Made by a program: the position numbers and the translations under genes. Source: a virus (Duplodnaviria > Heunggongvirae > Uroviricota > Caudoviricetes). From it: a stretch of DNA of 23,814 nt. The notes below the pieces were generated by a model that was not told where the DNA came from, searched no databases, and saw nothing but the letters and a program-made list of their open reading frames with translations. Numbering within the stretch: the stretch's first letter is position 1; each line of letters opens with the position of its first letter. The stretch is taken from positions 1-23,814 of the IMG/VR virus record IMGVR_UViG_2563366942_000005, one strand, 5' to 3'. Positions 1 through 22,833 of this stretch are shown here, in pieces.

Positions 1-1269
1 ATGAAGCTCACAGCCAGACAGGTCGAGACCGCAAAGCCAAAAGAAAAAACCTACAAAATGGCCGACGGCGGCGGTTTGTATCTCGAGATTTCGCCTAAGG
101 GGTCAAAATACTGGCGCATGAAATACAGACGCCCCTCAGACAAAAAAGAGGATCGCCTCGCTTTTGGTGTTTGGCCTACTGTGACGCTTGCTCAGGCAAG
201 AGCAAAGCGCGATGAAGCTAAAAAACTGCTAGTGCAGGGCATTGACCCAAAAGCCGAACAGAAAGAAGCTCAGGCCGAGAATTCGGGGGCATATACATTC
301 GAAACCATTGCTCGTGAATGGCACGCCAGTAACAAACGCTGGAGTGAAGACCATCGCTCGCGCGTTCTTCGCTATCTTGAGCTTTATATCTTCCCTCACA
401 TTGGTTCGTCCGACATTCGTCAGCTCAAGACTAGCCACCTGTTAGCCCCGATTAAAAAAGTTGATGCAAGTGGTAAGCATGACGTCGCGCAGCGACTTCA
501 GCAGCGTGTCACGGCTATCATGCGTTATGCAGTACAGAACGATTACATCGACTCAAATCCAGCCAGTGATATGGCTGGTGCTCTATCGACAACCAAAGCG
601 CGACATTACCCAGCTTTACCCTCTAGCCGGTTCCCTGAGTTTCTTGCACGTCTTGCTGCATATCGTGGCCGTGTAATGACACGGATCGCGGTTGAGCTTT
701 CCTTACTAACTTTTGTGCGTTCCAGTGAGTTGCGTTTTGCGCGTTGGGATGAATTCGACTTCGATAAATCTCTATGGCGCATACCTGCAAAACGAAAAGA
801 AATTAAGGGAGTGCGTTATTCGTATCGTGGTATGAAGATGAAAGAGGAGCATATCGTTCCGCTGAGTCGTCAGGCGATGAATTTGTTAGACCAGTTAAAG
901 CAGATTAGTGGTGATAAAGAGATGCTTTTCCCGGGGGATCATGACGCCACTAAGGTTATGAGTGAAAACACAGTGAATAGCGCATTGCGTGCGATGGGAT
1001 ATGACACAAAAACCGAAGTCTGCGGGCATGGGTTTAGGACGATGGCACGTGGTGCGTTGGGTGAGTCAGGATTATGGAGTGATGATGCTATAGAACGCCA
1101 ACTGAGCCATTCAGAGCGCAATAATGTTCGTGCAGCTTATATTCATACTTCTGAACATCTAGATGAGCGGCGTCTTATGGTTCAATGGTGGGCGGATTAT
1201 TTAGATATAAGTAAGCATTCTCAAGTCACTCCATATGAGTTTGCAAATATGCTTAAAGTTAAAAAGTAA
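1..1269 (+). CDS. int: P4-family tyrosine integrase (site-specific recombinase)
   Basis: 422-aa ORF with the typical P4-type integrase N-terminus (MKLTARQVETAKPK...DGGGLYLEISPKGSKYWRMKYR) and a C-terminal catalytic region (HGFRTMARGAL ... YIHTSEH). It is the first gene of the element and is oriented away from the presumed upstream tRNA. Confidence 0.9.
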   Translation: MKLTARQVETAKPKEKTYKMADGGGLYLEISPKGSKYWRMKYRRPSDKKEDRLAFGVWPTVTLAQARAKRDEAKKLLVQGIDPKAEQKEAQAENSGAYTFETIAREWHASNKRWSEDHRSRVLRYLELYIFPHIGSSDIRQLKTSHLLAPIKKVDASGKHDVAQRLQQRVTAIMRYAVQNDYIDSNPASDMAGALSTTKARHYPALPSSRFPEFLARLAAYRGRVMTRIAVELSLLTFVRSSELRFARWDEFDFDKSLWRIPAKRKEIKGVRYSYRGMKMKEEHIVPLSRQAMNLLDQLKQISGDKEMLFPGDHDATKVMSENTVNSALRAMGYDTKTEVCGHGFRTMARGALGESGLWSDDAIERQLSHSERNNVRAAYIHTSEHLDERRLMVQWWADYLDISKHSQVTPYEFANMLKVKK

Positions 1270-1291
1270 GAAATACCGGTCAAAAGCTAAC

Positions 1292-1759
1292 TTATTTTTT
1301 CTGCATTTGACCGAGTGTAATTACAGTTATTAATATGATGTGAATAATATTAAGAATGAGAATGTATAAACCACATTTCAAAATTGTCAATGCAACATTA
1401 AATGGCATTATGATAGCCACCATGCATAATAAAAATGTGACCAATAAAAAAACAATGCTCTGCCCATATAGATGGTAGAAGATATTTATATATCCTTGCT
1501 GTCGCCACTTTAGAAAAGAAGTTTTATCAGACACTGATATGATATAAGCACCAATTGCAGCAATGAATCCTGTCATTGTGAAACTAAAAGTACCTAATAG
1601 TGTAGCGATGCCAATTATACCTTCAGGTTTTATCTCTATGTATTGGTTTTCACAAAACACCGCAATGAGAGTAAAAATAACAGCAGTAAGAATGCTTACA
1701 CCCCATGTGGCTATATTAATTTTTACTATTGCTTGGTTAGTAAGCATTGTCATCCTCAA
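1292..1759 (-). CDS. Small multi-pass membrane protein (155 aa), hypothetical; putative effector of a two-gene cargo module
   Basis: The protein is dominated by about 4-5 long hydrophobic segments (e.g. WGVSILTAVIFTLIAVF, IIGIATLLGTFSFTMTGFIAAIGAYII, IVFLLVTFLLCMVAIIMPF, LYILILNIIHIILITVITL). Its start overlaps the upstream gene's stop (ATGA at 1756-1759). The region is AT-rich relative to the flanking satellite genes. Confidence 0.6.
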   Translation of the reverse strand: MRMTMLTNQAIVKINIATWGVSILTAVIFTLIAVFCENQYIEIKPEGIIGIATLLGTFSFTMTGFIAAIGAYIISVSDKTSFLKWRQQGYINIFYHLYGQSIVFLLVTFLLCMVAIIMPFNVALTILKCGLYILILNIIHIILITVITLGQMQKK

Positions 1760-2697
1760 CTTTTTGCTTTGTGGTAACTTTCTGTTTTTAGATCATTCCA
1801 CACTGGATCAATAATACCTGAATGTATGCGTCCAGTAAAATTTTGTGCGTATGTACTCAATTCACTTATCACAACTTGGTTTTTGTATCTTTTTTCAAGT
1901 ATTTGATCTTCAATCTTTACTTTGAGATGAGGGTTTATTATATCAAAAATATTCTGATTCTTATCTAAAATAAACTCTTTTACATTTGATTGAAATTCAT
2001 CTGCCTTGGCTCTGAAATAAATTTCTGCATACTCTTTATCTTCAGATGAAGATAAACTTGAGAGTAATGGTTGTATATAATCTTTCACATTCTCTTTTCT
2101 ATTTTTTCTTTTTACGATAATTTGCACTTCCATATTGTCTGATGGGGCCTTGCCAAACAATCCATTTATTACATCTCCAACAGAATCATTATTTAACTTC
2201 ACTCGTGCTTCAGTGATGAGTTTGAATTTTGTAGCCGATGTAGATTTGATTTCTATTTTTAATGTGCAAAGCTCGAAGGTGTAAATATGTGATTGAAAAT
2301 CTTGATTAATTATTTCGTTAATGAAGAATTGCAAATCATCAATGTCAGCATTACCTTTACCCTCGGTTACTCCGATTATTGAATGTTTAGGGTCAATAAA
2401 AAAGTAAGTAACTTTCTCTAGACTATCTTTACCAAGTACAGAAGCCAAATCATTTACTACACCAGTTGCTCTATCTACAGCTTTAAATGCTGTAGTAATT
2501 GCTGGCGTGGTCAAATAGTATATGCCATCAAATGAGGTGGGCATGGCTAGGTACAGTCTTTTTAACCCTTTGTTTTTCTCAAAAAGAGATTTTTTTCTAT
2601 GCAAACAAAAATTTTTGATAATATCTGAAATGTTATCAAAATAAACTTTTTGATTTCTATTGTCGGTTATTGTGTAAGTAAAATAATTTAACTTCAT
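1756..2697 (-). CDS. Hypothetical protein (313 aa), soluble, no recognisable motif; upstream partner of the membrane protein
   Basis: Long ORF with the start ATG at 2697 preceded by an AAAGAGA Shine-Dalgarno-like sequence. It is AT-rich and translationally coupled to the 155-aa membrane protein. It occupies the position of the P4 gop/beta/cII variable region between int and cos. Confidence 0.65.
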   Translation of the reverse strand: MKLNYFTYTITDNRNQKVYFDNISDIIKNFCLHRKKSLFEKNKGLKRLYLAMPTSFDGIYYLTTPAITTAFKAVDRATGVVNDLASVLGKDSLEKVTYFFIDPKHSIIGVTEGKGNADIDDLQFFINEIINQDFQSHIYTFELCTLKIEIKSTSATKFKLITEARVKLNNDSVGDVINGLFGKAPSDNMEVQIIVKRKNRKENVKDYIQPLLSSLSSSEDKEYAEIYFRAKADEFQSNVKEFILDKNQNIFDIINPHLKVKIEDQILEKRYKNQVVISELSTYAQNFTGRIHSGIIDPVWNDLKTESYHKAKS

Positions 2698-2942
2698 GTT
2701 CTCTTTCGCCTAGAGTGCTTATTTTTATATCATTGATCAGAAATATACTTTTAACAAGTATGCCTACTCATTTTTTTGGGTAGGTTCAATATATTATGTG
2801 TTGGTATTGTTCACCTGCATGCCTCGTAAGAGCATCAAACCTACTCTATGCATTTGCCACTGATCCATAATCGTTTATCTGCATACATCTATGATGTACT
2901 CAGGTTTCGAAAATAAATGTGCATCATTGCTATTGGCGCGCA

Positions 2943-2961
2943 GTGCTTTCCCCGCCTCGCC
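2943..2961. other. cos site (19-nt cohesive end sequence of P2/P4-type phages, reverse orientation)
   Basis: The sequence GTGCTTTCCCCGCCTCGCC at 2943-2961 is the reverse complement of GGCGAGGCGGGGAAAGCAC, which I recall as the P2/186/P4 cohesive end. It lies between the psu 3' end and the cargo cassette, as in P4. Confidence 0.75.
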
Positions 2962-3125
2962 CGCCCGCTTTGCAGGGCGGTTTTAATGCAGTTGCACAGT
3001 CACGCTCAGGCCGCGCCGGGAATGGCGCGGTCTGCAGAGAATGAGGCAGGAAAACGCATGCAAAGCCATGCACCTTATCGATGCATGGCTTTTTTCAGTA
3101 AAAACGGGCGGATTTTCGGGGAATT

Positions 3126-3698
3126 TTACACAGACTGACGTGATGCCAGTTGCGCACTTTTACGCGAAAAAATCATGTTCTGCGCAGGAGTGAATTTTTC
3201 ACGGCTGTCATCCACCGAAGCCGCGTCAGGCCTGAATCCGATGGTCGTTAAAATGTCGCTATCCTGTGCGGAATAATTAATTTTTTCACCCTTCGCAAGC
3301 CAGGACAGGAGGGCTTCACGCAGGGCATCTGTGGCACGCTGTATGGCACAGTTTCGGGCAATGGCCGTCAGCTCACTGTAGCCCATCAGCTCCGGTGCCA
3401 GTGCCGCCGCCAGTGCTGTGCCGTGCTGCTGCATAAAATCATTCAGCCGATCGCGGATGCTGATGTGCTGAACGGCTTCATGCGAACGAATATAACGACC
3501 GGCGGCCTGATTCACCTGCCATTTTCTGACTTCGATAATATTGCGTAATTCGTCCAGGCGACTGACGTTTCTGCCTTCTCCTGACAGAAGCCGCAGATAT
3601 TCCTGTTCGGCCGCAGCCAGCTCATTTTTGCGTTGCAGCCATGCTGCTTTGTTATTCTGACAGGTGTCAAAGGCCTGCTGTAAGGCTGTGCTTTCCAT
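3126..3698 (-). CDS. psu: Psu, polarity suppression protein / capsid decoration protein
   Basis: 190-aa ORF beginning MESTALQQAFDTCQNNKAAWLQRKNELAAAEQEY, which matches my recollection of P4 Psu in both length and N-terminal sequence. It is the last gene of the sid-delta-psu operon. Confidence 0.9.
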   Translation of the reverse strand: MESTALQQAFDTCQNNKAAWLQRKNELAAAEQEYLRLLSGEGRNVSRLDELRNIIEVRKWQVNQAAGRYIRSHEAVQHISIRDRLNDFMQQHGTALAAALAPELMGYSELTAIARNCAIQRATDALREALLSWLAKGEKINYSAQDSDILTTIGFRPDAASVDDSREKFTPAQNMIFSRKSAQLASRQSV

Positions 3699-3771
3699 CG
3701 TTATCTCTTTCTCATCATGCTGAAGAATAAAAATACGGTGTGCGGCGACGGCCGGTGTTAACCGGCAGCCC

Positions 3772-4272
3772 TCATTCCAGACGCAGCGAATATGATTGTG
3801 TTTTTAAGCGTACTGGCGGCAGTTCCTGTTTTTCATGCAGGCTTTCTGCCAGTTCGTCCGGCGTGACCGGGCGGACAATGAAGCGGTTGATGGTCTGAAG
3901 CGTTTTAAACACCAGACCACAGCCCGGATCCGTGCACACATAAAAACGCTCGGTGACTTCCTGAGACAGACGCCGCGATGTTCTTGACAGTGCAAGGCCT
4001 TTACATCTCCGACAACAATATCCGGTAACAAGCATTCTTTTCGGGCGTTTCATGCTACCGGAGGCTGACGTCAGTGAATCGCGGTATCTCTGTTTGCCTG
4101 AAATGTATTCCATTCCTGAATCTTTACTGTCAGAGAAAAAGCTTTCACTCGCTTCAAATGTCGCAGAGCAATAAATATTCCGGCACTGTGCAATCATTAT
4201 CTTGGTGCCATCGTCCATGAAATGTGCGCGACGGGTGTGAGCAACATGTCCACACGACGGGCAGTAAATCAT
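3772..4272 (-). CDS. delta: Delta, late-gene transcriptional activator (tandem Ogr-like zinc-finger domains)
   Basis: 166 aa with two Ogr-type Cys motifs (CPSCGHVAHTRR...CRNIYCSATF and CCRRCKGLALSRTSRR...CTDPGCGLVF). Size and duplicated-domain architecture match P4 Delta. Its start overlaps the sid stop. Confidence 0.9.
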   Translation of the reverse strand: MIYCPSCGHVAHTRRAHFMDDGTKIMIAQCRNIYCSATFEASESFFSDSKDSGMEYISGKQRYRDSLTSASGSMKRPKRMLVTGYCCRRCKGLALSRTSRRLSQEVTERFYVCTDPGCGLVFKTLQTINRFIVRPVTPDELAESLHEKQELPPVRLKTQSYSLRLE

Positions 4273-5003
4273 GACAGCAGTCCTCTGGCCTTAAGCTCTG
4301 CTCCCTGCTGGTCTATTTTGTCCTGCCACACCTTGCGCTGTGCCGGTGTGCCTGCCACCTCATAATCCATGTGCGGGAGTGTTGCCGCTGACAGTCCGGT
4401 CAGCCGGAGAACCGGCTCGCCGGTGAGGCTGATTTGCATCTGTTTAATTTTCTGTTCCAGCGATGATTTCACCTGCTGCATGACAGCCTTTTCCGGTGCG
4501 ACGTAGCCCTGATGGCCGGTGGTGTTGGCGAGCGGATTTTCCTGTACCAGGATACTCAGATGCATTGCCCGGACAAGCGCCTCACAGGTTTCATTCAGGG
4601 CGTGTTCCAGCTCATGCTCTGCATACAGACTCAGAAGGTGATGATGTGCCTTCCGGTAGGCGGTGGCCGTGCTGTCACACGCCCCTTTCAGGCGTTCACG
4701 TTCAAAATTCAGCACCACGGCCAGATTGTCATATTCCTGTACCAGCTCCCGGCGTGCCACGCGCTCAATGTGGCGCTGTTTCAGCTCGTCGCTCAGGACA
4801 CCACCGGCTGCACGAAAGGCCGTGCGCCAGTCGTCAGCGTCGTTTCCGTCGGCCTGCGCCAGCGCATTTTTTTCCTGCTCTGCCCGTTCAATGGCCGTGA
4901 CGGTCTCATCCATCAGACGGGCGTTCTCAAGATGGGCGGCTCTGGCCTTTTCCAGTTGTGCCAGCGCGGATTGCAGATATTCAGGGATGGTGTTGTCAGA
5001 CAT
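4269..5003 (-). CDS. sid: Sid, capsid size-determination (external scaffold) protein
   Basis: The ORF track gives 250 aa from an upstream Met. The ATG at 5003 (MSDNTIPEYLQ...) gives 244 aa, matching the P4 Sid length. The protein is alanine/glutamate-rich and helical in character, and is followed directly by delta and psu. Confidence 0.85.
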   Translation of the reverse strand: MSDNTIPEYLQSALAQLEKARAAHLENARLMDETVTAIERAEQEKNALAQADGNDADDWRTAFRAAGGVLSDELKQRHIERVARRELVQEYDNLAVVLNFERERLKGACDSTATAYRKAHHHLLSLYAEHELEHALNETCEALVRAMHLSILVQENPLANTTGHQGYVAPEKAVMQQVKSSLEQKIKQMQISLTGEPVLRLTGLSAATLPHMDYEVAGTPAQRKVWQDKIDQQGAELKARGLLS

Positions 5004-5172
5004 TTTCCGGCTCCTCGTCACTTCAGGTTAAGAAAATTGTGACGTACACCGGACAACAACACGACGCATTGCAGATGTGCCAGCCCTGACACAGGAGACT
5101 CATCCTCAGACCGGCAAGCCAGGAAAAGGTCGCAGGAAAAACCGGCTTACTGTTTGTTTTTTTATATTTTAC

Positions 5173-5276
5173 TGTTCACCTCTGTTCACCATAAGAAAAA
5201 AGATAAGTAATACAGTAAGTTAAAGGGTGAACAATCGCAGTAATGACTGTTCACCGTCTGTTCACCACTGTTCACC
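5173..5276. repeat. Cluster of TGTTCACC octamer iterons (P4 ori-like alpha-binding sites)
   Basis: Six exact copies of TGTTCACC or its complement GGTGAACA at 5173-5180, 5183-5190, 5226-5233, 5248-5255, 5259-5266 and 5269-5276, in the intergenic control region between sid and vis. The same octamer is reported as the P4 type I iteron. Confidence 0.7.
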
Positions 5277-5554
5277 CGTTGATGGGCTTTTTATGCTGTT
5301 TATTACTGTTTATTTTTATTAATTAACTGAAATAAATAAGAAAAAACAATTTGCATTTCACTATAAAAAATTCCAGGTCCTTCAGAACCCTTTGAGACCC
5401 TTCCAGTCCGGATGGATAAAAAACACACAGCCATTGTAAGGTTGCCGGAACAAATTCCCCCTGTTGCGTCTGCTGAAAATATTCACAAAATAAAGCGCTA
5501 CCCGAAGCCGGACGGACTTATCCGGTGCTGTATGGACATTAACGAGGTAGCCCG

Positions 5555-5821
5555 ATGCAAGCTGTTTTTTCTTCCCCGTCTCCCGCCCCTGTTACGCCAC
5601 TGATGCCGCTGCCGGACATCACGCAGGAGCGTTTTTTACGTCTGCCGGAAGTGATGCACCTGTGCGGCCTGTCACGCTCGACCATCTATGAACTCATCCG
5701 TAAGGGGGAATTTCCGCCGCAGGTGAGTCTTGGCGGTAAAAATGTGGCCTGGCTGCACTCTGAAGTCACCGCATGGATGGCCGGACGCATTGCCGGACGC
5801 AAACGGGGGGACGACGCATGA
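5555..5821 (+). CDS. vis: AlpA/Vis-family small DNA-binding regulator (excisionase-like helix-turn-helix)
   Basis: 88-aa ORF with the AlpA-type core ([46 protein letters not shown]). GAGG lies upstream of the ATG. Position is equivalent to P4 vis (orf88). Confidence 0.8.
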
Positions 5822-6210
5822 TGATGCCCGCTCTGCAAAAACTCCCTTTTTCTGGCTTGCCTTTTTCCGGCATTTGCGGATATAGTTTTTCCGCTGCCGC
5901 AAAATCGGCAGCCGGGCGTAGGAACCCGTGTAACTCGAAGGCGACATATGACGCGCCATGCGTCTTTTTTTGTGTCGCAATCAACGCCACAGAGCGCCAG
6001 ATTATGGTGTGGCGTGTGGTTTGCCGTGCAGGTATGATCCTGTTCGCAATCGCATGTTATGCCACTGAGTCAATGGTAGCTCAGGCGGGGCAGCCTCCGG
6101 GCTGGCCGGTATTCTTCGAGGCCGGTATTCCTACCCCCGTCTGGGCTATCGCCATCGAGCGTAGGAACTCCGGCGATAGCAGTTATTTGCTACTCGAAGG
6201 AGACTGCCTT

Positions 6211-6408
6211 ATGGCTACAACCCTTACCCCTTCACACCCTGAATTTGTCTTTGTGTTTGCGGCTGTCCGTCGCGCAGACCGTCATCCCCGTATCTGCATG
6301 CTTCGCACCGTCGCCGGTGATGAACGCAGCGCCCGCCGTTCCCTTGTCCGTGACTATGTGCTCTCCCTTGCTGCCCGTCTGCCGGTGGTGGAGGTGTCCC
6401 GTGCGTAA
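6211..6408 (+). CDS. Small hypothetical protein (65 aa) in the satellite early/immunity region
   Basis: ATG at 6211 preceded by AAGGAG. Its stop overlaps the GTG start of the next ORF. The upstream part of the 211-aa six-frame ORF containing it has a non-protein-like composition and is not called. Confidence 0.35.
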
Positions 6409-6688
6409 TAAAAAAGCCCCTCAGACCGTCTCAGCACGTCATGACGCCCGTGAACACCTCAGCATTGAGGCTTACCATAAGCTCAACCGCGCCAGCGCCG
6501 TATCCCAGTTTGTTGGGGGTGATTTGATTCACCGTGAACTCTCCGGCCTGCATCAGCTCTACATTCCGCATATTTTCAGCTACCTGAATGAAGATATTGA
6601 TTTTGTGCTGAATGAGCTGAAAGCCAAAGGCCTGTGCCGCGATTTTCTCGCCCAGCAGAAAGACCGGGGAGACAGGACGCATGTTTGA
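6401..6688 (+). CDS. Small early protein, epsilon-like by position (possible helper-derepression protein); start uncertain (GTG 6401, or upstream ATGs at 6356/6320/6245)
   Basis: ORF immediately upstream of the 151-aa and 106-aa genes and alpha. A GTG start coupled to the preceding stop gives 95 aa. The assignment rests on position and size only. Confidence 0.4.
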
Positions 6689-7136
6689 TTTTCCCCAGCC
6701 CGGTGAGATTTACCGTTCTGCCGGTTTTCCCGATGTGGCCGTGGTCGGCATTCTGGAAGACGGTATTCCGTGGGAAATGCCGTACCGCTGCCCGGAAATT
6801 GTCTGGAACCCGTACCGCCGTAAATTCAGTATCCTTGTGCGTATCCTCGCTGACGGGCGCACCACAGACATCCCGCTGGGGCGTTTTCTGCGGGAATTTA
6901 CCTGTGACCGTCCTGACCTGTTCAGACGCAGCCCCGTAAACCGGCATGCGGTACTGAAAGAAATGGCCGGAGACCCGGAATTACAGAAATGGCGGGAGAA
7001 ATATCTGGATATTTACCCGCAGGACCCTGTTCCGGTCAGCCGGGCGGCACCGGTGGCGCGGGAATGGCGGGAAATTCCCCGCACGGAGCCTGACCCGGAA
7101 ATCACCCCGGATAACAGTTACCGCAATTATCTGTAA
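6681..7136 (+). CDS. P4 orf151-like early protein
   Basis: 151-aa ORF with GGAGA upstream of the ATG, overlapping the previous stop. Size and position upstream of orf106/alpha match P4 orf151. Confidence 0.6.
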   Translation: MFDFPQPGEIYRSAGFPDVAVVGILEDGIPWEMPYRCPEIVWNPYRRKFSILVRILADGRTTDIPLGRFLREFTCDRPDLFRRSPVNRHAVLKEMAGDPELQKWREKYLDIYPQDPVPVSRAAPVAREWREIPRTEPDPEITPDNSYRNYL

Positions 7137-7271
7137 TTAAAAAACGACACCCGAAAAATTAAATGTGCGTATTCGCGCAGGGATACGCACGTCTTCAGGA
7201 GACGCAGATATGCCTTATCAGTTAATGCAACCGGCACGGAATGCAGTCATCTGTCACAGGGAGGAAAGCAA

Positions 7272-7592
7272 ATGAAAACACCCTTACCGCCCGTCTTACG
7301 CGCAGCCCTTTACCGTCGTGCTGTCGCCTGTGCCTGGCTGACCGTGTGCGAACGTCAGCACCGCTACCCGCATCTCACCCTTGAATCACTGGAGGCGGCC
7401 ATCGCCGCTGAGCTGGAAGGCTTTTATCTGCGCCAGCACGGTGAGGAAAAAGGGCGTCAGATAGCCTGTGCCCTGCTGGAAGATTTAATGGAATCCGGCC
7501 CCCTGAAGGCCGCGCCGTCGCTGTCCTTTCTCGGGCTGGTTGTGATGGATGAACTCTGTGCCCGTCACATAAAAGCGCCGGTACTGCACTGA
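7272..7592 (+). CDS. P4 orf106-like protein (possibly Cnr-like copy-number regulator)
   Basis: 106-aa ORF with a strong Shine-Dalgarno sequence (GGGAGGAAAG) immediately upstream of alpha. The Cnr identity is from memory of P4 literature and was not verified. Confidence 0.55.
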
Positions 7593-7606
7593 AGGAGAAC
7601 AACACC

Positions 7607-9940
7607 ATGAAAATGAACGTAACCGCCACCGTCAGCCATGCGCTCGGCCACTGGCCGCGTATTCTCCCGGCGCTGGGGATTCAGGTGCTGAAAAACCGTC
7701 ATCAGCCCTGTCCGGTCTGTGGCGGGAGTGACCGCTTCCGTTTTGATGACAGGGAGGGGCGCGGCACCTGGTACTGCAATCAGTGTGGTGCCGGTGACGG
7801 CCTGAAACTGGTTGAAAAGGTGTTTGGTGTCTCCCCGTCCGACGCGGCCACAAAGGTGGCTGCCGTGACCGGCAGCCTGCCACCGGCTGACCCGGCAGTG
7901 ACGACCGCCGCCGTTGCTGAAACAGACGCTGCCCGGAAGAACGCCGCCACACTGGCACAAACCCTGATGGCGAAAACCCGTACCGGAACCGGTAACGCCT
8001 ACCTGACCCGCAAGGGCTTTCCCGGCCGGGAATGCCTGATGCTGACCGGCACACACAGAGCCAGTGGCGTGAGCTGGCGCGCCGGTGACCTTGTGGTGCC
8101 ACTGTATGACGACAGCGGCGAACTGGTTAACCTTCAGTTAATCAGTGCTGACGGCCGTAAGCGCACCCTGAAAGGCGGACAGGTCAGGGGCACCTGTCAC
8201 ACCCTTGAAGGACAGAATCAGGCCGGAAAACGTCTGTGGATAGCGGAGGGATACGCGACCGCACTTACCGTGCATCACCTGACCGGTGAAACGGTGATGG
8301 TGGCGCTTTCTTCCGTGAACCTCCTTTCTCTGGCCAGCCTTGCCCGGCAGAAGCATCCGGCCTGTCAGATTGTCCTTGCCGCAGACCGTGACCTCAGCGG
8401 TGACGGCCAGAAAAAAGCCGCCGCAGCCGCAGATGCGTGTGAGGGTGTTGTTGCCCTGCCGCCGGTCTTCGGTGACTGGAATGATGCCTTCACGCAGTAC
8501 GGCGGGGAAGCCACCCGTAAGGCCATTTATGATGCCATCCGGCCACCGGCTGAAAGCCCGTTCGACACCATGAGCGAAGCGGAGTTTTCCGCCATGAGTA
8601 CCAGCGAAAAGGCCATGCGTATCTATGAGCATTACGGCGAGGCGCTCGCGGTCGATGCCAACGGCCAGCTTCTGTCCCGCTATGAAAATGGTGTCTGGAA
8701 GGTGCTGCCGCCACAGGACTTTGCCCGGGATGTGGCCGGGCTGTTTCAGCGTCTGCGCGCGCCGTTCTCCTCCGGGAAGGTGGCCTCCGTGGTGGACACC
8801 CTGAAGCTGATTATTCCGCAGCAGGAAGCCCCCTCCCGCCGCCTGATTGGCTTTCGTAACGGCGTGCTCGACACGCAGAACGGTACGTTCCACCCGCACA
8901 GTCCGTCACACTGGATGCGCACCCTGTGCGATGTGGATTTCACCCCGCCGGTGGACGGTGAAACGCTGGAAACCCACGCTCCCGCGTTCTGGCGCTGGCT
9001 TGACCGTGCTGCCGGTGGTCGTGCGGAAAAACGCGACGTGATTCTGGCCGCACTGTTTATGGTGCTGGCAAACCGCTACGACTGGCAGCTCTTTCTGGAG
9101 GTGACCGGTCCCGGCGGCAGCGGCAAAAGTATCATGGCCGAAATAGCCACCCTGCTGGCCGGGGAGGATAACGCCACATCGGCCACCATTGAGACGCTGG
9201 AATCCCCGCGTGAACGTGCCGCGTTAACTGGCTTCTCACTGATACGCCTGCCGGACCAGGAAAAATGGAGCGGCGACGGTGCCGGACTCAAGGCCATCAC
9301 CGGCGGCGATGCGGTGTCCGTTGACCCGAAATACCGGGATGCATACTCCACGCATATCCCGGCGGTAATTCTGGCCGTGAACAATAACCCGATGCGCTTC
9401 ACCGACCGCAGCGGCGGCGTGTCACGCCGGCGGGTGATTATTCACTTCCCGGAACAGATAGCCCCGCAGGAGCGCGACCCGCAGCTTAAGGACAAAATCA
9501 CCCGCGAGCTGGCGGTCATCGTGCGTCACCTGATGCAGAAGTTCAGCGACCCGATGCTCGCCCGGTCACTGCTTCAGTCCCAGCAGAACTCAGACGAGGC
9601 GCTGAACATCAAACGGGATGCCGACCCAACGTTTGATTTTATCGGCTATCTGGAAACCCTGCCGCAGACCAGCGGCATGTATATGGGGAACGCCAGTATC
9701 ATCCCGCGCAATTACCGTAAATACCTCTATCACGCCTATCTGGCCTACATGGAGGCAAACGGCTACCGGAATGTACTCAGTCTGAAAATGTTCGGGCTGG
9801 GGCTGCCGGTGATGCTGAAGGAATACGGACTGAATTACGAGAAGCGCCATACCAAACAGGGGATACAGACCAACCTGACGCTGAAAGAGGAAAGCTACGG
9901 CGACTGGCTGCCAAAATGTGACGACCCTGCAACAACCTGA
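7607..9940 (+). CDS. alpha: Alpha protein: bifunctional primase-helicase with origin-binding domain
   Basis: 777 aa, the same length as P4 alpha. It has an N-terminal zinc-binding primase motif (CPVCGGSDRF...CNQCGAGDG), a Walker A motif in the central helicase domain (GPGGSGKS) and a C-terminal DNA-binding region. Confidence 0.95.
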   Translation: MKMNVTATVSHALGHWPRILPALGIQVLKNRHQPCPVCGGSDRFRFDDREGRGTWYCNQCGAGDGLKLVEKVFGVSPSDAATKVAAVTGSLPPADPAVTTAAVAETDAARKNAATLAQTLMAKTRTGTGNAYLTRKGFPGRECLMLTGTHRASGVSWRAGDLVVPLYDDSGELVNLQLISADGRKRTLKGGQVRGTCHTLEGQNQAGKRLWIAEGYATALTVHHLTGETVMVALSSVNLLSLASLARQKHPACQIVLAADRDLSGDGQKKAAAAADACEGVVALPPVFGDWNDAFTQYGGEATRKAIYDAIRPPAESPFDTMSEAEFSAMSTSEKAMRIYEHYGEALAVDANGQLLSRYENGVWKVLPPQDFARDVAGLFQRLRAPFSSGKVASVVDTLKLIIPQQEAPSRRLIGFRNGVLDTQNGTFHPHSPSHWMRTLCDVDFTPPVDGETLETHAPAFWRWLDRAAGGRAEKRDVILAALFMVLANRYDWQLFLEVTGPGGSGKSIMAEIATLLAGEDNATSATIETLESPRERAALTGFSLIRLPDQEKWSGDGAGLKAITGGDAVSVDPKYRDAYSTHIPAVILAVNNNPMRFTDRSGGVSRRRVIIHFPEQIAPQERDPQLKDKITRELAVIVRHLMQKFSDPMLARSLLQSQQNSDEALNIKRDADPTFDFIGYLETLPQTSGMYMGNASIIPRNYRKYLYHAYLAYMEANGYRNVLSLKMFGLGLPVMLKEYGLNYEKRHTKQGIQTNLTLKEESYGDWLPKCDDPATT

Positions 9941-9956
9941 CCCTCATAACTCATCT

Positions 9957-9980
9957 GACCGGCATCTGCCGGTCTTTTTT
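9957..9980 (+). terminator. Putative intrinsic terminator downstream of alpha
   Basis: GC-rich hairpin GACCGGCATCTGCCGGTC followed by TTTTTT, 17 nt after the alpha stop codon. Confidence 0.6.
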
Positions 9981-9998
9981 CATCCCTGAATCCCCCGA

Positions 9999-10275
9999 AG
10001 GTGAACAATCCACTGTTCACCCTTCACCGTATATTCACCAGTTATCACACTGAAATTAAAAGAGAAAAACGAAAGGTGAACAGTGTGAACAATCAAATCA
10101 AAAAAAACTTTTTTCTTCCTGAGTGATTTCAGTGCGGAGGATTAATCACCGGTATGAGTCACACCGGCAGAATGCCGGAGGTGAAGAATCGAATGTTCAC
10201 CCTTCACCCATTATTCACCACCTATCACTCTGAAATAAAAGGAGAAAACAGAAAGGTGAACAGTGTGAACAGTTC
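9999..10275. repeat. Tandem direct repeat (two imperfect units of about 100 bp, period about 180 bp), each carrying TGTTCACC/GGTGAACA iterons plus an A-tract/T-tract; crr-like cis replication region
   Basis: Unit 1 (about 9999-10100) and unit 2 (about 10179-10280) align along their length. Full octamers lie at 10000-10007, 10014-10021, 10075-10082, 10194-10201 and 10255-10262, with degenerate copies between. Each unit ends in an A8/T6-type tract. Confidence 0.7.
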
Positions 10276-10484
10276 TTTCGAAAAAAAATTTTTTATGTGG
10301 ATAAAAGATGCACTGGTTTGGATCCGAGCTACGGATCCAAACTTACTGATTAAAAATGATTTAACTTTCCGATTTATTGATGGGCTGAAAATAGATTGGT
10401 CAGAAAAACAGTGGGGGCACAAAAGGGGGCATATTTCATTGTTGTGTTTTATTATTTGTTTTTTATCATTAACTTATTTTGATG

Positions 10485-10506
10485 TTTGAGTCCGGCCTTC
10501 GCACCA
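10485..10506 (+). other. attR: partial direct repeat of a tRNA-Leu 3' end (integration-site core)
   Basis: TTTGAGTCCGGCCTTCGCACCA closely resembles the 3' end of E. coli leuX tRNA (TTCGAGTCCGGCCTTCGGCACCA, from memory), with no tRNA body upstream. The position just past alpha/crr is where attR is expected. Confidence 0.6.
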
Positions 10507-10895: not shown

Positions 10896-13787
10896 ATGAT
10901 TGGTACAACACCTTATCATGCGAAATATTTTGCGCATGAACTTTCCATTCTCCATTCAAACAATGGGGTGGACCGTCTGTCTCAATCGCTGTTTGATGCA
11001 AGCGTAGATCTAAATCCTCATCAAATTGAGGCGGCTCTTTTTGCTATTGAAAATCCGCTAAGCAAAGGTGTTGTGCTTGCCGATGAAGTTGGTTTAGGTA
11101 AAACCATTGAAGCGGGGTTAGTGCTTTGCCAGTTGTGGGCTGAAAGAAAACGTAAACTGTTGATCATTTGTCCTGCTTCACTGCGTCGCCAATGGGCGAG
11201 CGAGTTACAGGAAAAGTTCAATCTACCTTCTCAGGTGTTGGACGCGAAAACGTATAGCCAGCTTCAAAAAGAAGGGATCCATAATCCCTTAAATAATAAA
11301 TCGATCACTATCATGTCATACCACTATGCTGCTCGGTTAGAAGAAAAATTGGTGGCTGAAATGTGGGATCTGGTTGTTATCGACGAAGCCCATAAACTGC
11401 GTAATGCTCATCGAGAAAGTAACAAAATGGGGCAAGCGTTAAAGCGTGCGCTTGATGGGCGGAAAAAATTACTACTGACCGCAACGCCTTTACAGAATTC
11501 GTTAATGGAACTGTATGGCATGTCGACGCTTATAGATGAACATACCTTCGGCGAAGTTAAAGCGTTCAGAAAGCAATATATGCAGGCAGATAGCGATATT
11601 GCGGAGTTGAAGGGGCGATTGTCGCGTTTTATCAAACGAACTTTACGCAAGAATGTGCTGGAGTACATCAAGTATACAGAACGTAAAGCGATCACTATTC
11701 CTTTCTATCCGAGCGAACAGGAGCAGGATCTTTATGAACGCGTACAAAAATTGCTTGAACGTGAGGATAGCTATGCCTTACCAAAACGACACCGGCATCT
11801 GACGGGGCTTATTCTCAGAAAGCTACTTTCCTCAAGTACGAAAGCTGTATTGAATAACTTGCAGATCCTTAAGAGTCGTTTAGAAAGGTTAAAGCTGGAA
11901 GGTATCGTTGAAGATGATATGAACATCATCCAACAGATCATAATGGATGACGATCTTGAAGATGACATCGTGGAAGATGCCGAATCAGTGGCTTTAGATA
12001 CCGAGTGCAAAGTTGTCGATTCAGACGCGCTTCAGGCAGAAATCAATGAGCTGGAATCACTCATTGTCAAAGCAGAACAGATTGGCACTGATACCAAATC
12101 AAAAGAGTTGCTTTCTGGCCTGGAGCAAGGTTTTGCACAGCTTGCCGAAATGGGGGCTGCAAAAAAAGTCATCATCTTCACGGAGTCAATGCGAACTCAA
12201 CAGTATCTTGCACATTTTCTGGAAAACAATGGCTACCAGGGGAAAGTAGTAACCTTTAGTGGCACAAACAATACACCGCAGGCAAACAAGATCTACCAGC
12301 AATGGCGCGAGGAATATCAGGGATCTTCTCGTATTACCGGGTCGGCGCAAATTGATAAACGCTCGGCTTTGATCGACCACTTCAAAGATCATGCTGAAAT
12401 CATGATAGCTACAGAAGCTGCAGCTGAAGGGGTGAACCTGCAATTTTGTTCGCTACTGATCAATTACGATTTACCCTGGAACCCACAACGCATTGAACAG
12501 CGTATTGGACGTTGTCACCGATACGGGCAAAAATTTGATGTGGTTGTTATTAACTTCCTCAATCAGCGAAACCAGGCCGATCAACGCGTTCTTGAACTCT
12601 TAACTGAAAAGTTCAGCCTGTTTGATGGCGTGTTTGGCGCATCGGATAGTGTGCTTGGCAGCATAGAAAATGGTGTGGATTTTGAAAAAAGGATCCAGTC
12701 AATTTATGAGTCATGCCGTACCCCCGAGGAGATAGAGCTGGCTTTTGAAAGGTTGCAGAAAGAGCTGGAAGATGAAATCAATCTCAAGATGCAGAAGACG
12801 CAAGAACAGTTGCTTGAGCATTTTGATGAAGATATTCACGATATCCTTAAAATAAGGCTTGATGAAGCTCGGGAGCGTCTGGATAAAGTCGGTCGTTGGT
12901 TTTGGGCCGTGACCTGTCAGCAGCTCAAACAATATGCTGATTTTGATCATGAGCATCATCGTTTCACTTTACGTGAATCAGTAAATGAACTGCCTGTCGG
13001 GCAGTACCAGCTGTTGCGCAAAGATGGTAGGCAAAATAGTGCGTTACAAATGCAGGATCACCACAGTTTTGCATATCGGATCAATCATCCGCTGGGTGAG
13101 TACGTCATTGAGGGGGCTAAGGTCCAGGAGACGAAAACAGCTGAAGTCATCTTCGATTACAGTAACCACACAACGAAAGTCTCGGTGGCTGAGCAGCTGA
13201 AAGGGCAATCAGGGTGGTTAACACTAAATTTGCTTACTGTTGATGCGTTTAACAGGCAGCAATTTTTAGTCTTTACCGCAAAAACTGACAACGGACGTGT
13301 GGTAGATGGTGAAGCTTGTAAACGTCTGTTCAACTTGTCTGCAATAACCAACGAAAAGCTGGATAATTCGGCAAGTTCAGATGCATTACCTGATGACTTG
13401 ATCTTACTCAAGAACAGGCAAATTGACGCCAGACTTGCGGAAGTTCTGGAGCAGAACAATGTCCTTTTTGAAGCTGAAAGAGATAAGCTGGAAAAATGGG
13501 CTGAAGATATGATCTTTGCGGCGGAAGAAGCATTACGCGATACCAAAATGCAAATCAAGTCGTTAAAGCGAGAAGCCAGACTGGCGCAATCGATGGAAGA
13601 ACAAAAGCAAAACCAGGAAAAGCTGAAGCTACTGGAACGGCAGCAGAAACGCCAACGTATGGAAATTTTTGACATTGAAGATGAGATCGCTGACAAGCGG
13701 GATGAACTCATCAGTGCCCTTGAAGAGCGGATGAAGCAAAAAACGGATATCACCGAGCTTTTTTCCATCCGCTGGAAAGTTATTTAA
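10896..13787 (+). CDS. SNF2-family (SWI2/SNF2) helicase/ATPase with about 400-aa coiled-coil-rich C-terminal extension; DrmD-like
   Basis: 963 aa with helicase motifs I (LADEVGLGKT), II (VVIDEAHKLRN), III (LLTATPLQNS) and VI (QRIGRCHRYGQ). It is the first gene of an AT-rich three-gene operon, with AGAGAGAAAAG upstream of the ATG. Confidence 0.9.
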   Translation: MIGTTPYHAKYFAHELSILHSNNGVDRLSQSLFDASVDLNPHQIEAALFAIENPLSKGVVLADEVGLGKTIEAGLVLCQLWAERKRKLLIICPASLRRQWASELQEKFNLPSQVLDAKTYSQLQKEGIHNPLNNKSITIMSYHYAARLEEKLVAEMWDLVVIDEAHKLRNAHRESNKMGQALKRALDGRKKLLLTATPLQNSLMELYGMSTLIDEHTFGEVKAFRKQYMQADSDIAELKGRLSRFIKRTLRKNVLEYIKYTERKAITIPFYPSEQEQDLYERVQKLLEREDSYALPKRHRHLTGLILRKLLSSSTKAVLNNLQILKSRLERLKLEGIVEDDMNIIQQIIMDDDLEDDIVEDAESVALDTECKVVDSDALQAEINELESLIVKAEQIGTDTKSKELLSGLEQGFAQLAEMGAAKKVIIFTESMRTQQYLAHFLENNGYQGKVVTFSGTNNTPQANKIYQQWREEYQGSSRITGSAQIDKRSALIDHFKDHAEIMIATEAAAEGVNLQFCSLLINYDLPWNPQRIEQRIGRCHRYGQKFDVVVINFLNQRNQADQRVLELLTEKFSLFDGVFGASDSVLGSIENGVDFEKRIQSIYESCRTPEEIELAFERLQKELEDEINLKMQKTQEQLLEHFDEDIHDILKIRLDEARERLDKVGRWFWAVTCQQLKQYADFDHEHHRFTLRESVNELPVGQYQLLRKDGRQNSALQMQDHHSFAYRINHPLGEYVIEGAKVQETKTAEVIFDYSNHTTKVSVAEQLKGQSGWLTLNLLTVDAFNRQQFLVFTAKTDNGRVVDGEACKRLFNLSAITNEKLDNSASSDALPDDLILLKNRQIDARLAEVLEQNNVLFEAERDKLEKWAEDMIFAAEEALRDTKMQIKSLKREARLAQSMEEQKQNQEKLKLLERQQKRQRMEIFDIEDEIADKRDELISALEERMKQKTDITELFSIRWKVI

Positions 13788-13807
13788 TTGATTTGAAAGA
13801 GAAAATA

Positions 13808-16800
13808 ATGAGTAAGTACAACGAATTAGTTAAGAAGCTAAAAGAAATTTTTCAGATTGATCGACCAGAACTGGATTTCGGTATTTATCGTATTTTAAAT
13901 GCACGTGCTGATGAAATTAACGACTATCTGGATAATAAGCTGAAGGCCAAAATCCAGTCTGCGCTGGCGGATGCAGGAAATGCCAATAAATCAGAATTAG
14001 AACATCAGTTGCAACTGACAATAAAAGCGGCAACTGATGCGGGTGTGGACCCTGCTGATAGCCCGAAAGTACAGGAGCTTAAAAAGCAACTGGCGGCTAT
14101 GGCATCCGGAGCAAATGAGCATGAAAATGCAGTATTTTCCCATCTGCTGACTTTCTTTTCGCGTTATTATGACAACGGCGATTTTATCAGCAAACGCCGT
14201 TATAAAGGTAATACCTACGCCATCCCTTATTCTGGCGAAGAAGTGATGTTGCACTGGGCAAATAAGGACCAGTACTACATTAAAAGCGGTGAAAACTTTG
14301 CTAATTATTCATTTAAATTAGATGATGGTCGTAAAGTTAGCTTTAAATTGCTCGCAGCGGACACAGCAAAAGATAACCGTAAAGATAATGAATTAGATCG
14401 CTGCTTTGTACTTATTGAGCCGCATGTTCGTACCAAAATTGATGAAGAAGGCGATGAGTACGAACAAGAATATAAGCCAGTAGAAGTGGTGAAAACTTCA
14501 TCTGTGGTTGACGGTAAACTCGTTGAAACAGAAGAGTTAGTTATTCACTTCGAATATAAGGCCATGAAAAAGGGCACTAAGCAGGATGCTTTAGTGCAGT
14601 CCGCTATTTCAACAATTCTGGCTGATAAAACAGTTCAACAGCATTGGGTTGATCTTGCTAAACGTGCGCCAACAGAAAAAAATCCGTCACGTACAGAGTT
14701 GGAGCGTCATCTTACAACTTATACCCAGCGTAATACAGCAGACTACTTTATTCATAAAGATCTCGGTGGTTTTTTAACTAACGAACTGGATTTTTATATT
14801 AAAAATGAAGTAATGAATCTCGATAATGTGCAAAATGCAGAAGTGTTTGCCAATATTGAGAAACAATTGCGCATGATTCAATGTTTGCGTACTGTTGCGC
14901 TGGAACTCATTGCATTTTTGGCACAAATTGAGAATTTCCAGAAGAAACTTTGGACTAAGAAGAAGTTTGTTGTTTCAAGTAATTACTATATTACTATGGA
15001 CAAAATAAGTTCAGAGTTTTACAGTGAAATAATTAATAATGAAAAAATAGTCCAAGAATGGATTGAATTAGGCATCTTAGATGAGAAGCCATCTACCTCT
15101 GATGTGGAGTTGCTCAAGTTTGCAACAGTTAATTTATCTCATTTAAACGGAGATCTAAGGAAAAAAATATTAAATAGTATCAATGATATTGACGATAATG
15201 TTGATGGCGTTTTTATTAATGGTGATAATTATCAAGCGTTAAATCTTTTGAAGAAAAATATAATTCCGTAATTGATTGTGTCCATATAGATCCACCATAT
15301 AACACAGATACTAGTGGTTTTTTATATAAAAATAGCTTTAAGCATTCAAGTTGGCTGAGTATGATGGATAGCCGTTTGCTTTTTGTTAAAAATTTACTCA
15401 GTGAAAATGGTGTATTTTTTTGTCATATTGATGAAAATGAATATGAGCGACTTTATTTAATTAATAAACAGTTAGGTCTTATCGATGCAGGGACAATTAT
15501 TTGGGATAAACGCAATCCCATGAATGGTGGTAGTGGCATTGCGATTCAACATGAATATACTACTTGTTTTACAAAGAACATGATTTCTATTAATAAGAAA
15601 AATGAGAATGTATTAGAAATACTCGAATATGCAAAATTAATTAAGAATAAATATCCTGTAATTAACAGTGAAGCAAAGAAAAAATTTTATGATTGGGTAA
15701 CAAAGAATAAAAAACTTACTGGAGGTGAACAAGCTTACAAATATATCGATGAGAAAGGTCGAGTGTACCAGAGTGTCAGCCTCCGTGCCCCAGAGCCAAG
15801 GACTGACAAGAAATTCTATATACCATTAATTCATCCAGTTACCGGGAAACCATGCGCTATGCCACCAAATGGTTTTTCTCGTACCCCAGAAACATTAAAA
15901 GATATGATGGATAAGGGGGATATACTATTTGGTGTTGATGAAACAACGCAACCTAGACAGAAAGCATATTTATATGCTGACGCTAAAAAGCAAATAACAT
16001 CAATAATTCAGGATGCTAAAAAAGGAAAAACTCAAACAACTCATCTTGGAATTGATTTTCCTTATTGTCACTCAACTTCTTTATATAATTATTTAATTGG
16101 GAGTGCATCTCATAATAAAAATGAGATAATATTAGATTTTTTTGCTGGTTCAGGAACAAGTGGCCACTCAGTCATAGAGTTGAATCGTAAGGATGCGGGT
16201 TCAAGGAAATATATACTTGTTGAACAGGGGGAGTATGCACAAAATGTAACTTTAAGCAGGTTGAGAAAAGTTATATTCAGTAGCAATTGGAAAGATGGTA
16301 AAGCTATGGATTCAACGACAGGCTCATCTCATATACTTAAAGTTATGAAAATAGAAAGTTACGAAGATGTATTAAATAGCCTTCGATTTGAACAACAAAA
16401 AGAAATAAAAGATCTTTTTGATACAGTGAATGAATCAGTAGCAAATGAGTATTTAATAAAATATATGCTTGAAACAGAAAGCAAAGGTTCACTACTCAGT
16501 ACTGATAATTTCAAAAAACCATTTAACTACGAAATGGATATTGCGACGGATTCCGCCGGTGCCACTGAGCGTAAAAACATCGATTTAGTTGAAACTTTCA
16601 ACTATCTCATTGGTTTACATGTGAAATCCATCGAATCCAATATCGAACGTGGCTATGTGCGTGTTGAAGGAATGCTACCAACAGGCGAGCGTACCCTTAT
16701 TCTGTGGCGCGATTGCGACAAGATCGGTTATGAAGAATTGAATAAATATGCCAGCCGATTCGATTTATATGCAAAAGAAAACACGTTCGACGTTATCTAT

Positions 16801-16929
16801 ATCAATGGCGATCATAACTTACCTACCGCCTTTACCGTTGATGAAGAAGACGGCGAGATTGTTCGTAGCCTGAAAATCCGCCAGATCGAACCTGAATTCT
16901 TGAACCTGATGTTTGCGGAGGAGGTTTAA
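13808..16929 (+). pseudogene. Large beta-class N6-adenine DNA methyltransferase (about 1040 aa if fused), split by a frameshift near 15229-15271
   Basis: The N-terminal ORF (frame 2) ends at 15271 just after ...GDNYQALNLLKKN. Frame 1 is open from 15229 and reads SVIDCVHIDPPYN (motif IV, DPPY) and then DFFAGSGTSGHSVIELN (motif I, FxGxG). The two halves are one methyltransferase with the frame shifted inside an A-rich stretch (GAAGAAAAATATAAT). Start ATG taken at 13808 (MSKYNEL...). Confidence 0.8.
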
Positions 16930-17291
16930 GAATGGCTAAAAAACCAACCACCGGTAAAGCTGTTAAAAAAGAGACAAACAGCAAACTGAGCTTTCATAAG
17001 CAACTGGTTTTGAACCGCTTTATGTTCCATTTTTTTAAAGATGGCACATTGCAAGGTTTAAAGAATCGGTTAGGTGAAGATCGCTTTGAAGGCATCCATG
17101 AAGATGGCCAAAGCTTGTTCTTCCATGAGCTGAGTAACTATTTATTCGAGGTCGATCTTATCGATCTCGATGAACTGCGTCGTTACGATCTCAATATCGT
17201 ACAGCACTGGCAGCAGATAACTGAGCACCGTAATCGGGTGATGCTGCCAACTTACTGATTTAGTGTATGATGGTGTTTTTGAGGTGCTCCA

Positions 17292-17567
17292 GTGGCTTCT
17301 GTTTCTATCAGCTGTCCCTCCTGTTCAGCTACTGACGGGGTGGTGCGTAACGGCAAAAGCACCGCCGGACATCAGCGCTATCTCTGCTCTCACTGCCGTA
17401 AAACATGGCAACTGCAGTTCACTTACACTGCTTCTCAACCCGGTACGCACCAGAAAATCATTGATATGGCCATGAATGGCGTTGGATGCCGGGCAACTGC
17501 CCGCATTATGGGCGTTGGCCTCAACACGATTTTACGTCACTTAAAAAACTCAGGCCGCAGTCGGTAA
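17292..17567 (+). CDS. insA: IS1 InsA (transposition inhibitor / N-terminal part of InsAB' transposase)
   Basis: 91-aa protein [42 protein letters not shown]..., matching IS1 InsA. Confidence 0.95.
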
Positions 17568-17989
17568 CCTCGCGCATACAGCCGGGCAGTGACGTCATCG
17601 TCTGCGCGGAAATGGACGAACAGTGGGGCTATGTCGGGGCTAAATCGCGCCAGCGCTGGCTGTTTTACGCGTATGACAGTCTCCGGAAGACGGTTGTTGC
17701 GCACGTATTCGGTGAACGCACTATGGCGACGCTGGGGCGTCTTATGAGCCTGCTGTCACCCTTTGACGTGGTGATATGGATGACGGATGGCTGGCCGCTG
17801 TATGAATCCCGCCTGAAGGGAAAGCTGCACGTAATCAGCAAGCGATATACGCAGCGAATTGAGCGGCATAACCTGAATCTGAGGCAGCACCTGGCACGGC
17901 TGGGACGGAAGTCGCTGTCGTTCTCAAAATCGGTGGAGCTGCATGACAAAGTCATCGGGCATTATCTGAACATAAAACACTATCAATAA
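17486..17989 (+). CDS. insB: IS1 InsB reading frame (expressed as InsAB' transposase by -1 ribosomal frameshift)
   Basis: 167-aa ORF matching IS1 InsB (...[50 protein letters not shown]...). It overlaps insA in the -1 frame. Confidence 0.9.
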
Positions 17990-20900: not shown

Positions 20901-21100
20901 ATCTTGAACATAAATTATCGGATGATAACTTATCATTAAGTGCATTTATTGTTTCTGAAACTTGTTATGTTGACTTAGTAAACGTACCTGACTCAAAAGA
21001 AAATCTGGAAGCCAGAAATGTGCTTTTTATTGAGGATACAGGCCCCGTTTATCTGGAGAAGTTATTCAGTAAGATGGTTAGCGAGTAAATAATTATGATT

Positions 21101-22622: not shown

Positions 22623-22833
22623 TGATATCCCTGGCAGTGAAATAATTGCGATCATGCTCGCAAATTTTCTGCTGTTCAAGCCTGCAAGTGAAGATATATT
22701 ACCTTGATCTCATTTGTTTTTTTGCTGCCTGTGTGCCCTAATTGCCATGCGATGTTGCACCGACGCAAACCACCGTTTATGCCGGAGGAGTTAAAAGCGC
22801 TGATGGATGCGAATAAATCAAATTAATGAACGC

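Follow-up and report, generated by a model that had tools for sequence, protein, structure and literature searches.

A RexAB-type gene pair, very probably a phage-exclusion cassette, in the int-cos hotspot of a P4-like satellite

The stretch of DNA analyzed here (23,814 nt, referred to below as the window) begins with an element of the P4 type, the features of which are listed in Table 1. BLASTN comparison with the P4 reference (NC_001609) showed that positions 1-1208 are 89.5% identical to P4 int and that positions 2962-10506 are 97.4% identical, at the DNA level and over 7.5 kb, to P4 read from 11624 to 4078; the same comparison found no P4 homology between positions 1209 and 2961. With int, cos, psu, delta, sid, the immunity/epsilon region and the alpha primase in P4 order, and with integration at a tRNA, the element is a P4-like satellite. 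The tRNA of the integration site lies outside the window; in strain EC556, which carries an identical locus, a tyrosine-type recombinase annotated in RefSeq adjoins tRNA-Leu and the satellite is found beside ahr/yjgR. The insert that separates int from cos (1270-2935) has a GC content of 31.8%, compared to 47% in int and 55% across the P4 backbone, and is encoded on the strand opposite to int. A first-pass annotation of this DNA, made from the sequence alone, had described an AT-rich insert on the strand opposite to int that replaces gop-beta-cII in a P4 backbone, and this description was borne out. The two ORFs that it had called, one of 313 aa (1756-2697, minus strand) and a downstream hydrophobic one that ends at 1292 on the same strand, are also present.

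To the right of the attP-core end of the satellite (about position 10506), the window carries a defence island. The DPPY motif of the frameshift-split mod gene in this island falls in the interval that separates its two ORFs and is in frame with the downstream one, and the IS1 copy in res has a 9-bp target duplication, CCGTAATCG, at 17228-17236 and 18004-18012.

Table 1. Features of the window, with coordinates as positions in the 23,814-nt stretch
Feature	Coordinates	Strand	Remarks and evidence
P4-type tyrosine integrase, 422 aa	1-1269	+	Left flank of the hotspot; ORF; 89.5% DNA identity to P4 int
Hotspot cargo, about 1.67 kb, 31.8% GC	1270-2935	-	Without P4 homology; stands in for P4 gop-beta-cII
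rexB-like gene, 151 aa from ATG 1747	1292-1747	-	Putative four-TM membrane effector; PADLOC RexB, AF2 model, hydropathy
Gene junction	1748-1759	-	TGA of rexA-like gene 1758-1756; GAGG ribosome-binding site 1757-1754; ATG of rexB-like gene 1747
rexA-like gene, 313 aa	1756-2697	-	Putative cytoplasmic sensor/activator; ORF, coordinates include the stop
Non-coding stretch between cos and rexA-like gene	2698-2942	-	Presumed native promoter; within the pFR86 clone
cos cohesive end, 19 nt	2943-2961	-	GGCGAGGCGGGGAAAGCAC; identical to bases 1-19 of P4 record NC_001609
Rest of P4-like satellite	2962-10506	-	97.4% DNA identity to P4 11624 to 4078; P4 annotation; ORFs
psu	3126-3698		Within rest of satellite
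delta	3772-4272		Within rest of satellite
sid	4269-5021		Within rest of satellite
Immunity/epsilon region	after sid		Within rest of satellite
alpha primase	7607-9940	+	Within rest of satellite
crr and attP core	after alpha primase; satellite end about 10506		P4 alignment
DrmD-like SNF2 helicase, intact	10896-13787		Defence island
Type III mod gene, frameshift-split	13793-15271 and 15361-16929		Defence island
Type III res gene, IS1-interrupted	IS1 inverted repeats 17235-17259 and 17982-18006		Defence island
HNH protein	21750-22679	-	Defence island
SASA-family esterase	22834-23814	-	Defence island

The two genes of the insert form one unit on the minus strand, in which the rexA-like gene (2697 to 1756) is followed by the rexB-like gene (1747 to 1292), i.e., in the rexA to rexB order. 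The minus-strand bases from 1759 to 1756, previously reported as an ATGA overlap, read TTGA, in which a TTG codon shares bases with the TGA stop (1758-1756). A GAGG Shine-Dalgarno sequence was found at 1757-1754, 6 nt upstream of the ATG at 1747; the gap between the genes is 8 nt and the ribosome-binding site overlies the stop of the rexA-like gene. This arrangement is compatible with translational coupling, as had been proposed, yet the genes do not overlap. The second gene had been given a length of 155 aa and an ORF of that length does exist, starting at the alternative TTG 1759. Taking into consideration the GAGG sequence, the presence of 151-aa homologues and the length of 151 aa given both in RefSeq and by Rousset et al., however, the start is almost certainly ATG 1747. 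Short junctions comparable to this one were also found for the related pairs in Klebsiella, Vibrio and Colwellia. A sigma-70 consensus scan of the non-coding stretch upstream (2698-2942) yielded no match of 9/12 or better, and a promoter and terminator scan of 1150-3200 yielded 14 promoter-like sites (8.9 +/- 3.0 expected), none of which is located in 2698-2942. A 9/12 match at 1839-1811 is a candidate for an internal promoter that would serve the rexB-like gene alone, comparable to pLIT of lambda.

The 313-aa protein, in which the first-pass annotation had recognized no motif, exceeds the gathering threshold of the Pfam RexA family (PF15969; 43.1 bits against a cutoff of 25, E 5e-11, profile positions 1-229 of 235), which is described in Pfam as "Intracellular sensor of Lambda phage, Abi component". 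PF15969 was already annotated in all of the database homologues of this protein (24/24), down to 36% identity; homologues come from Salmonella, Klebsiella, Serratia, Lelliottia, Pectobacterium, Colwellia, Idiomarina and Paraglaciecola. A profile of the family matched lambda RexA in hhalign with 83% probability (E 9.5e-6), and structural searches with the protein gave strong matches to lambda RexA at a structure-based identity of about 14-16%. [quoted passage not shown] Its distance from lambda RexA is considerable at the sequence level, as pairwise BLASTP between the two gave no significant match, the PADLOC RexA model gave no match at E<=1, and the PDB yielded no match in sequence searches, whether the query was the protein alone or an 18-sequence profile; among the PDB searches, lambda RexA was found by the structure-based ones only. 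A tblastn search of 50,697 phage records with the protein gave no match. These analyses show that gene 1 encodes a divergent RexA homologue with a RexA/RdgC-like two-domain fold.

The 151-aa protein matched the PADLOC RexB model (PDLC02340) with an E value of 4.4e-6, and the same model matched 16 of the 21 members of its family, with a best E of 2.9e-12. Its AF2 model (pLDDT 88) contains four long helices, with a further short helix in the central loop, and a hydropathy scan agrees with four transmembrane segments, so that the earlier prediction of a multi-pass membrane protein holds. A conserved loop motif of the family, W-R-x-x-G-Y (invariant F..W..GY), aligns with REYGY in the "...KIREYGYM" of lambda RexB. 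By direct comparison the relationship to lambda RexB is weak, with an hhalign probability of 28% and no significant match between the two proteins in pairwise BLASTP, and RexB membership at the sequence level is therefore based on profiles and intermediates. An exhaustive profile search started from the family recovered 97 representative clusters of proteins of 95-170 aa. Lambda RexB matches many of these intermediates (best E 1.5e-12 in a 123-sequence set), including sequences that score strongly to the family of the 151-aa protein, and these shared intermediates provide a transitive link between the protein and lambda RexB. Foldseek of the 151-aa model against BFVD gave weak matches (best E 0.08); the top 50 did not include lambda RexB, and a 165-aa protein of Sbash matched weakly with a probability of 0.80 and E 0.44. 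PHROGs and NCBIfam gave no meaningful match for either protein of the cassette. Gene 2 thus encodes a RexB-like small inner-membrane protein with four predicted transmembrane helices.

The pair had been proposed to be an uncharacterized, novel module, and it might be argued that both genes are labeled as hypothetical proteins in RefSeq and that the PADLOC RexA model misses gene 1. That the cassette represents an unnamed defence system or a rearranged Kiwa is nevertheless scarcely credible, since gene 1 scores above the Pfam RexA threshold and has strong structural matches to lambda RexA, gene 2 matches the RexB profile, and the published designation of the pair is "RexA | RexB". Kiwa (KwaA plus KwaB, DUF4868) was rejected specifically, as at E<=1 neither protein matched DUF4868 in Pfam or a Kwa model in PADLOC, and the gene order is reversed; the first-pass annotation was right to set it aside. 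Homology to an already named system, which that annotation had listed as evidence against its own proposal, was found in the form of RexAB.

The cassette is, in fact, not new. Rousset, Depardieu et al. 2022 (Cell Host Microbe 30:740; PMC9122126) examined what P4-like satellites carry in the psu-int hotspot, and both proteins of the window (313 and 151 aa) are 100% identical to those of their system #22, "RexA | RexB", the second protein of which is annotated as "4 TM". The RefSeq identifiers of the window proteins, WP_000775192 (313 aa) and WP_016235352 (151 aa), appear in Table S1A of that study, and the location is also the same, with psu/cos on one side and int on the other in a P4-like satellite. 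The cassette was cloned from Escherichia marmotae E1118 "under native promoter" as pFR86, "RexAB-like" (PMC9122126). The proteins of this clone are identical to those of the window and its insert corresponds to about window positions 3214-1149, including the native upstream region; in the cos-proximal non-coding DNA, 15 of the 399 bases compared differ between the window and the E1118 clone. On a low-copy plasmid in MG1655, pFR86 was challenged with lambda, T4, P1, 186cIts, CLB_P2, LF82_P8, AL505_P2 and T7 (PMC9122126). It is listed in Table S2B ("additional tested systems") and falls outside the seven systems of Table S2A with "robust and reproducible resistance" (PMC9122126). The native-promoter clone and phage panel that the first-pass annotation had suggested have therefore been carried out, and the peer-reviewed version reports no robust resistance for this clone. 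A 2021 preprint mentions only "moderate protection against P1vir" for "a distant analog of RexAB", which may be either pFR86 or the other Rex-like clone, pFR81. Since the window cassette is the same as system #22/pFR86, with both proteins identical to those of a published, RexAB-labeled and tested pair, it has already been catalogued, cloned and phage-tested, and there is no novelty in the find. The published weak or negative plaque data do not decide the function of the cassette, because the T4 in that panel was the wild type (PMC9122126), against which classic Rex has no effect, its targets being rII mutants.

Comparison with other genomes showed that the two genes travel together. Orthologues in Klebsiella are 90% (gene 1) and 76% (gene 2) identical at the amino acid level, with dN/dS values of 0.044 and 0.102, respectively, at a dS above 1.2, i.e., at saturation; this strong purifying selection argues that neither ORF arose by chance. 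The Klebsiella pair occupies the corresponding slot in a P4-like satellite (the membrane gene was confirmed by tblastn), the Vibrio pair is part of a small element with the order HTH, RexA, RexB-like and integrase, and the Colwellia pair is chromosomal, without obvious mobile context. The two genes remain paired across gammaproteobacterial families, even where protein identity falls to 35-40%. Among 5426 complete E. coli genomes, 21 (about 0.4%) carry the cassette at at least 99% identity, always on the chromosome and with the ORFs intact, and both genes are always labeled "hypothetical protein" in RefSeq. The rexA-like and rexB-like genes therefore represent a conserved functional pair under purifying selection. 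By comparison, the view that the cassette serves no function at present, as cargo that is inert or in decay, is very unlikely. The absence of the cassette from the validated systems of Rousset et al. 2022 (PMC9122126) and the lack of a convincing upstream sigma-70 promoter could be taken to favor it; however, it is contradicted by the low dN/dS of both genes (0.04 and 0.10 at saturating dS), by the intact ORFs in all 21 genomes and by the retention of the pairing across families, and the silence of classic Rex against wild-type T4, the T4 of the panel, weakens the negative plaque data as evidence for decay.

The cassette shares with lambda the order rexA to rexB, with a gap of 15 nt in lambda and 8 nt in the window, and the proteins are of similar size (279 aa for lambda RexA, the structure of which is PDB 8TWQ, versus 313 aa; 144 aa for lambda RexB versus 151 aa). 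The context differs: lambda rex is located in the immunity operon downstream of cI, whereas the cassette is in the P4 int-cos cargo hotspot, far from the P4 immunity region, and thus lacks a lambda-type context of co-transcription with cI. Some accepted Rex-like systems (Sbash, Butters and Rubeelu) also lack this context, and its absence is therefore a difference from lambda and not a failure to belong to the family. Validated Rex-like systems include Mycobacterium phage Sbash gp30/gp31, Gordonia phage CarolAnn gp44/gp43, Pseudomonas putida RexABpp and the Vibrio cholerae integron cassette Sucellos (SclA/SclB). The cassette resembles these four in its two-gene architecture, in which a four-TM membrane protein accompanies a RexA-like protein of the cytosol. 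Each of the four needs both of its genes and has the membrane protein as its effector. According to the literature, Sucellos gives no match to Pfam RexA, unlike the 313-aa protein of the window. P. putida RexBpp causes membrane damage without depolarization, and depolarization by RexB-type proteins is disputed. Within the P4 hotspot itself, Rousset system #4 (169 loci, "weak homology to RexA pfam", cloned as pFR81 "RexA + 4TM") and system #36 ("RexA | RexB", 46 loci) share the location and architecture of the cassette but have other protein sequences and lengths, and thus represent distinct lineages (PMC9122126).

The context of the pair also bears on whether it serves mainly the life cycle of the satellite or of its helper rather than phage exclusion. 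Possible roles of this type include a bias between lysogeny and lytic growth, modulation of host proteolysis or energy, and timing in P2-dependent induction. P4 immunity is RNA-based, and a role linked to CI/Cro, as in lambda, therefore has no obvious counterpart in P4. Moreover, the cassette is located in a variable cargo slot that holds many defence systems and not beside the P4 immunity region, and the occurrence of the pair outside satellites, in the Vibrio integrase element and on the Colwellia chromosome, indicates that it is independent of P4 biology. Although second functions of this kind are known for lambda RexA (RexB has also been named), and although the identical cassette showed no robust anti-phage phenotype in published plaque assays (PMC9122126), a role mainly in the life cycle of the satellite or helper is improbable.

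Overall, the segment is very probably a phage-exclusion cassette of two RexAB-type genes, which a P4-like satellite with integration at tRNA-Leu carries as cargo in its int-cos hotspot. This agrees with the earlier description of the insert as hotspot cargo that pairs a soluble with a multi-pass membrane protein, in the manner of abortive-infection systems with a sensor and a membrane effector. By homology, exclusion would most likely require both proteins and would involve RexB-dependent membrane perturbation or growth arrest. By analogy with known Rex systems, the RexA-like protein may be a cytoplasmic, DNA-binding dimer, RdgC-like in fold, that responds to a signal specific to infection, presumably a phage protein-DNA intermediate. 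Once activated, this sensor would switch on the RexB-like membrane protein, which would then perturb the membrane, leading to ion leak and to loss of energy or integrity. The infected cell would stop growing or die, and the cycle of the competing phage would remain incomplete, i.e., infection would be abortive. As cos adjoins the cassette, a P2-like helper would package and spread it together with the satellite. Tentatively, the cassette could also function in exclusion with a trigger, or a need for a certain context, other than that of lambda Rex, a possibility that is doubtful but not negligible. An exclusion system of this kind might act only on phages that lack a counter-defence of the rII type; alternatively, a P2-helper or satellite background might be needed for expression or activation. 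Either difference would explain why no robust phenotype was seen in plasmid assays in MG1655 with wild-type phages.

The value of this locus as a discovery is small, as the exact pair has been published, labeled as similar to lambda RexAB, cloned and tested. Its practical value lies in annotation: with "hypothetical protein" as the RefSeq label of both genes and a PADLOC RexA model that misses gene 1, automated defence annotation may overlook the cassette, a gap that affects about 0.4% of complete E. coli genomes plus relatives in Salmonella, Klebsiella and Serratia. If the cassette does work in exclusion with a trigger or context unlike that of lambda Rex, the pair would represent a compact and widely conserved model, found from Enterobacteriaceae to Vibrio and Colwellia, for what RexA senses. 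A divergent yet conserved RexAB lineage with good structural models could offer a comparative handle on the signal of RexA, some 70 years after the discovery of Rex.

A weak sigma-70-like match (TTTACT-17-TATTAT, 9/12) is present at 1839-1811 on the minus strand, upstream of the rexB-like start and within the 3'-terminal part of the rexA-like coding sequence. In phage lambda, the pLIT promoter expresses rexB alone, and the match is reminiscent of that promoter. Since the total of the promoter scan barely exceeds the shuffled expectation, this candidate internal promoter is considered a lead only.

Among the other features of the satellite, both crr repeats of P4 have been kept but are diverged, each being approximately 82% identical to the P4 counterpart of the other. 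A Pfam search of the short ORF that overlaps the second repeat found no match.

The gene encoding a SNF2 helicase is located directly to the right of the P4-like satellite end, and type III restriction-modification (R-M) genes are found downstream of this DrmD-like gene; together, these genes represent a defence island adjoining the P4-like element. The two methyltransferase ORFs (13793-16929, plus strand) match one single PADLOC model in different frames, and the DPPY catalytic motif falls between them, in frame with the downstream one. The two would be joined into one ORF by a 1-nt indel close to the run of A residues at ~15250-15263. The split reflects a frameshift that has made the gene a pseudogene, an error in sequencing, or phase variation. 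The gene encoding the restriction subunit (16932-21088, plus strand) is interrupted by IS1 (~17237-18004).

Features of the satellite's right part and of the region to its right
Feature	Coordinates	Strand	Remarks
P4 crr direct repeats, two	9995-10114 and 10175-10294		120 bp each
111-aa ORF	10154-10489	+	overlaps second crr repeat; corresponds to GeneMark-predicted P4p05 region
SNF2 helicase, 963 aa	10896-13787	+	intact; PADLOC DrmD model, E 1.3e-199
Type III methyltransferase, upstream ORF, 492 aa	13793-15271	+	PADLOC model positions 1-489
Type III methyltransferase, downstream ORF, 522 aa	15361-16929	+	PADLOC model positions 524-1057
Restriction subunit, N-terminal ORF, 108 aa	16932-17258	+
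IS1 target-site duplication, 9 bp	17228-17236 and 18004-18012		CCGTAATCG
IS1 inverted repeats	17235-17259 and 17982-18006
Restriction subunit, remaining ORF, 1020 aa	18026-21088	+
HNH-domain protein, 309 aa	21750-22679	-	PADLOC HNH model, E 7.7e-25
SASA/sialate-O-acetylesterase-family protein, 326 aa	22834-23814	-	extends to window end

Outside this element, a distant RexA/RexB-like pair was found in a Vibrio locus (L003 3035-5642; GCA_040104145.1), where a 316-aa RexA and a 162-aa membrane protein show 35-40% identity to the pair in the window. The minimal element carrying the Vibrio pair consists of an HTH_36 protein, RexA, the RexB-like protein and a tyrosine integrase, which suggests that small integrative elements of several kinds serve as vehicles for the RexAB-like module. 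In the E. coli P4 hotspot, the Rex-like systems #4, #22 (the cassette described here) and #36 have been reported at 169, 69 and 46 loci, respectively (Rousset 2022, Table S1B, PMC9122126), and none of them is among the validated systems of that survey. These systems represent three different Rex-like lineages sharing one hotspot, which makes modules of the Rex type a recurrent class of cargo in the E. coli P4 hotspot.
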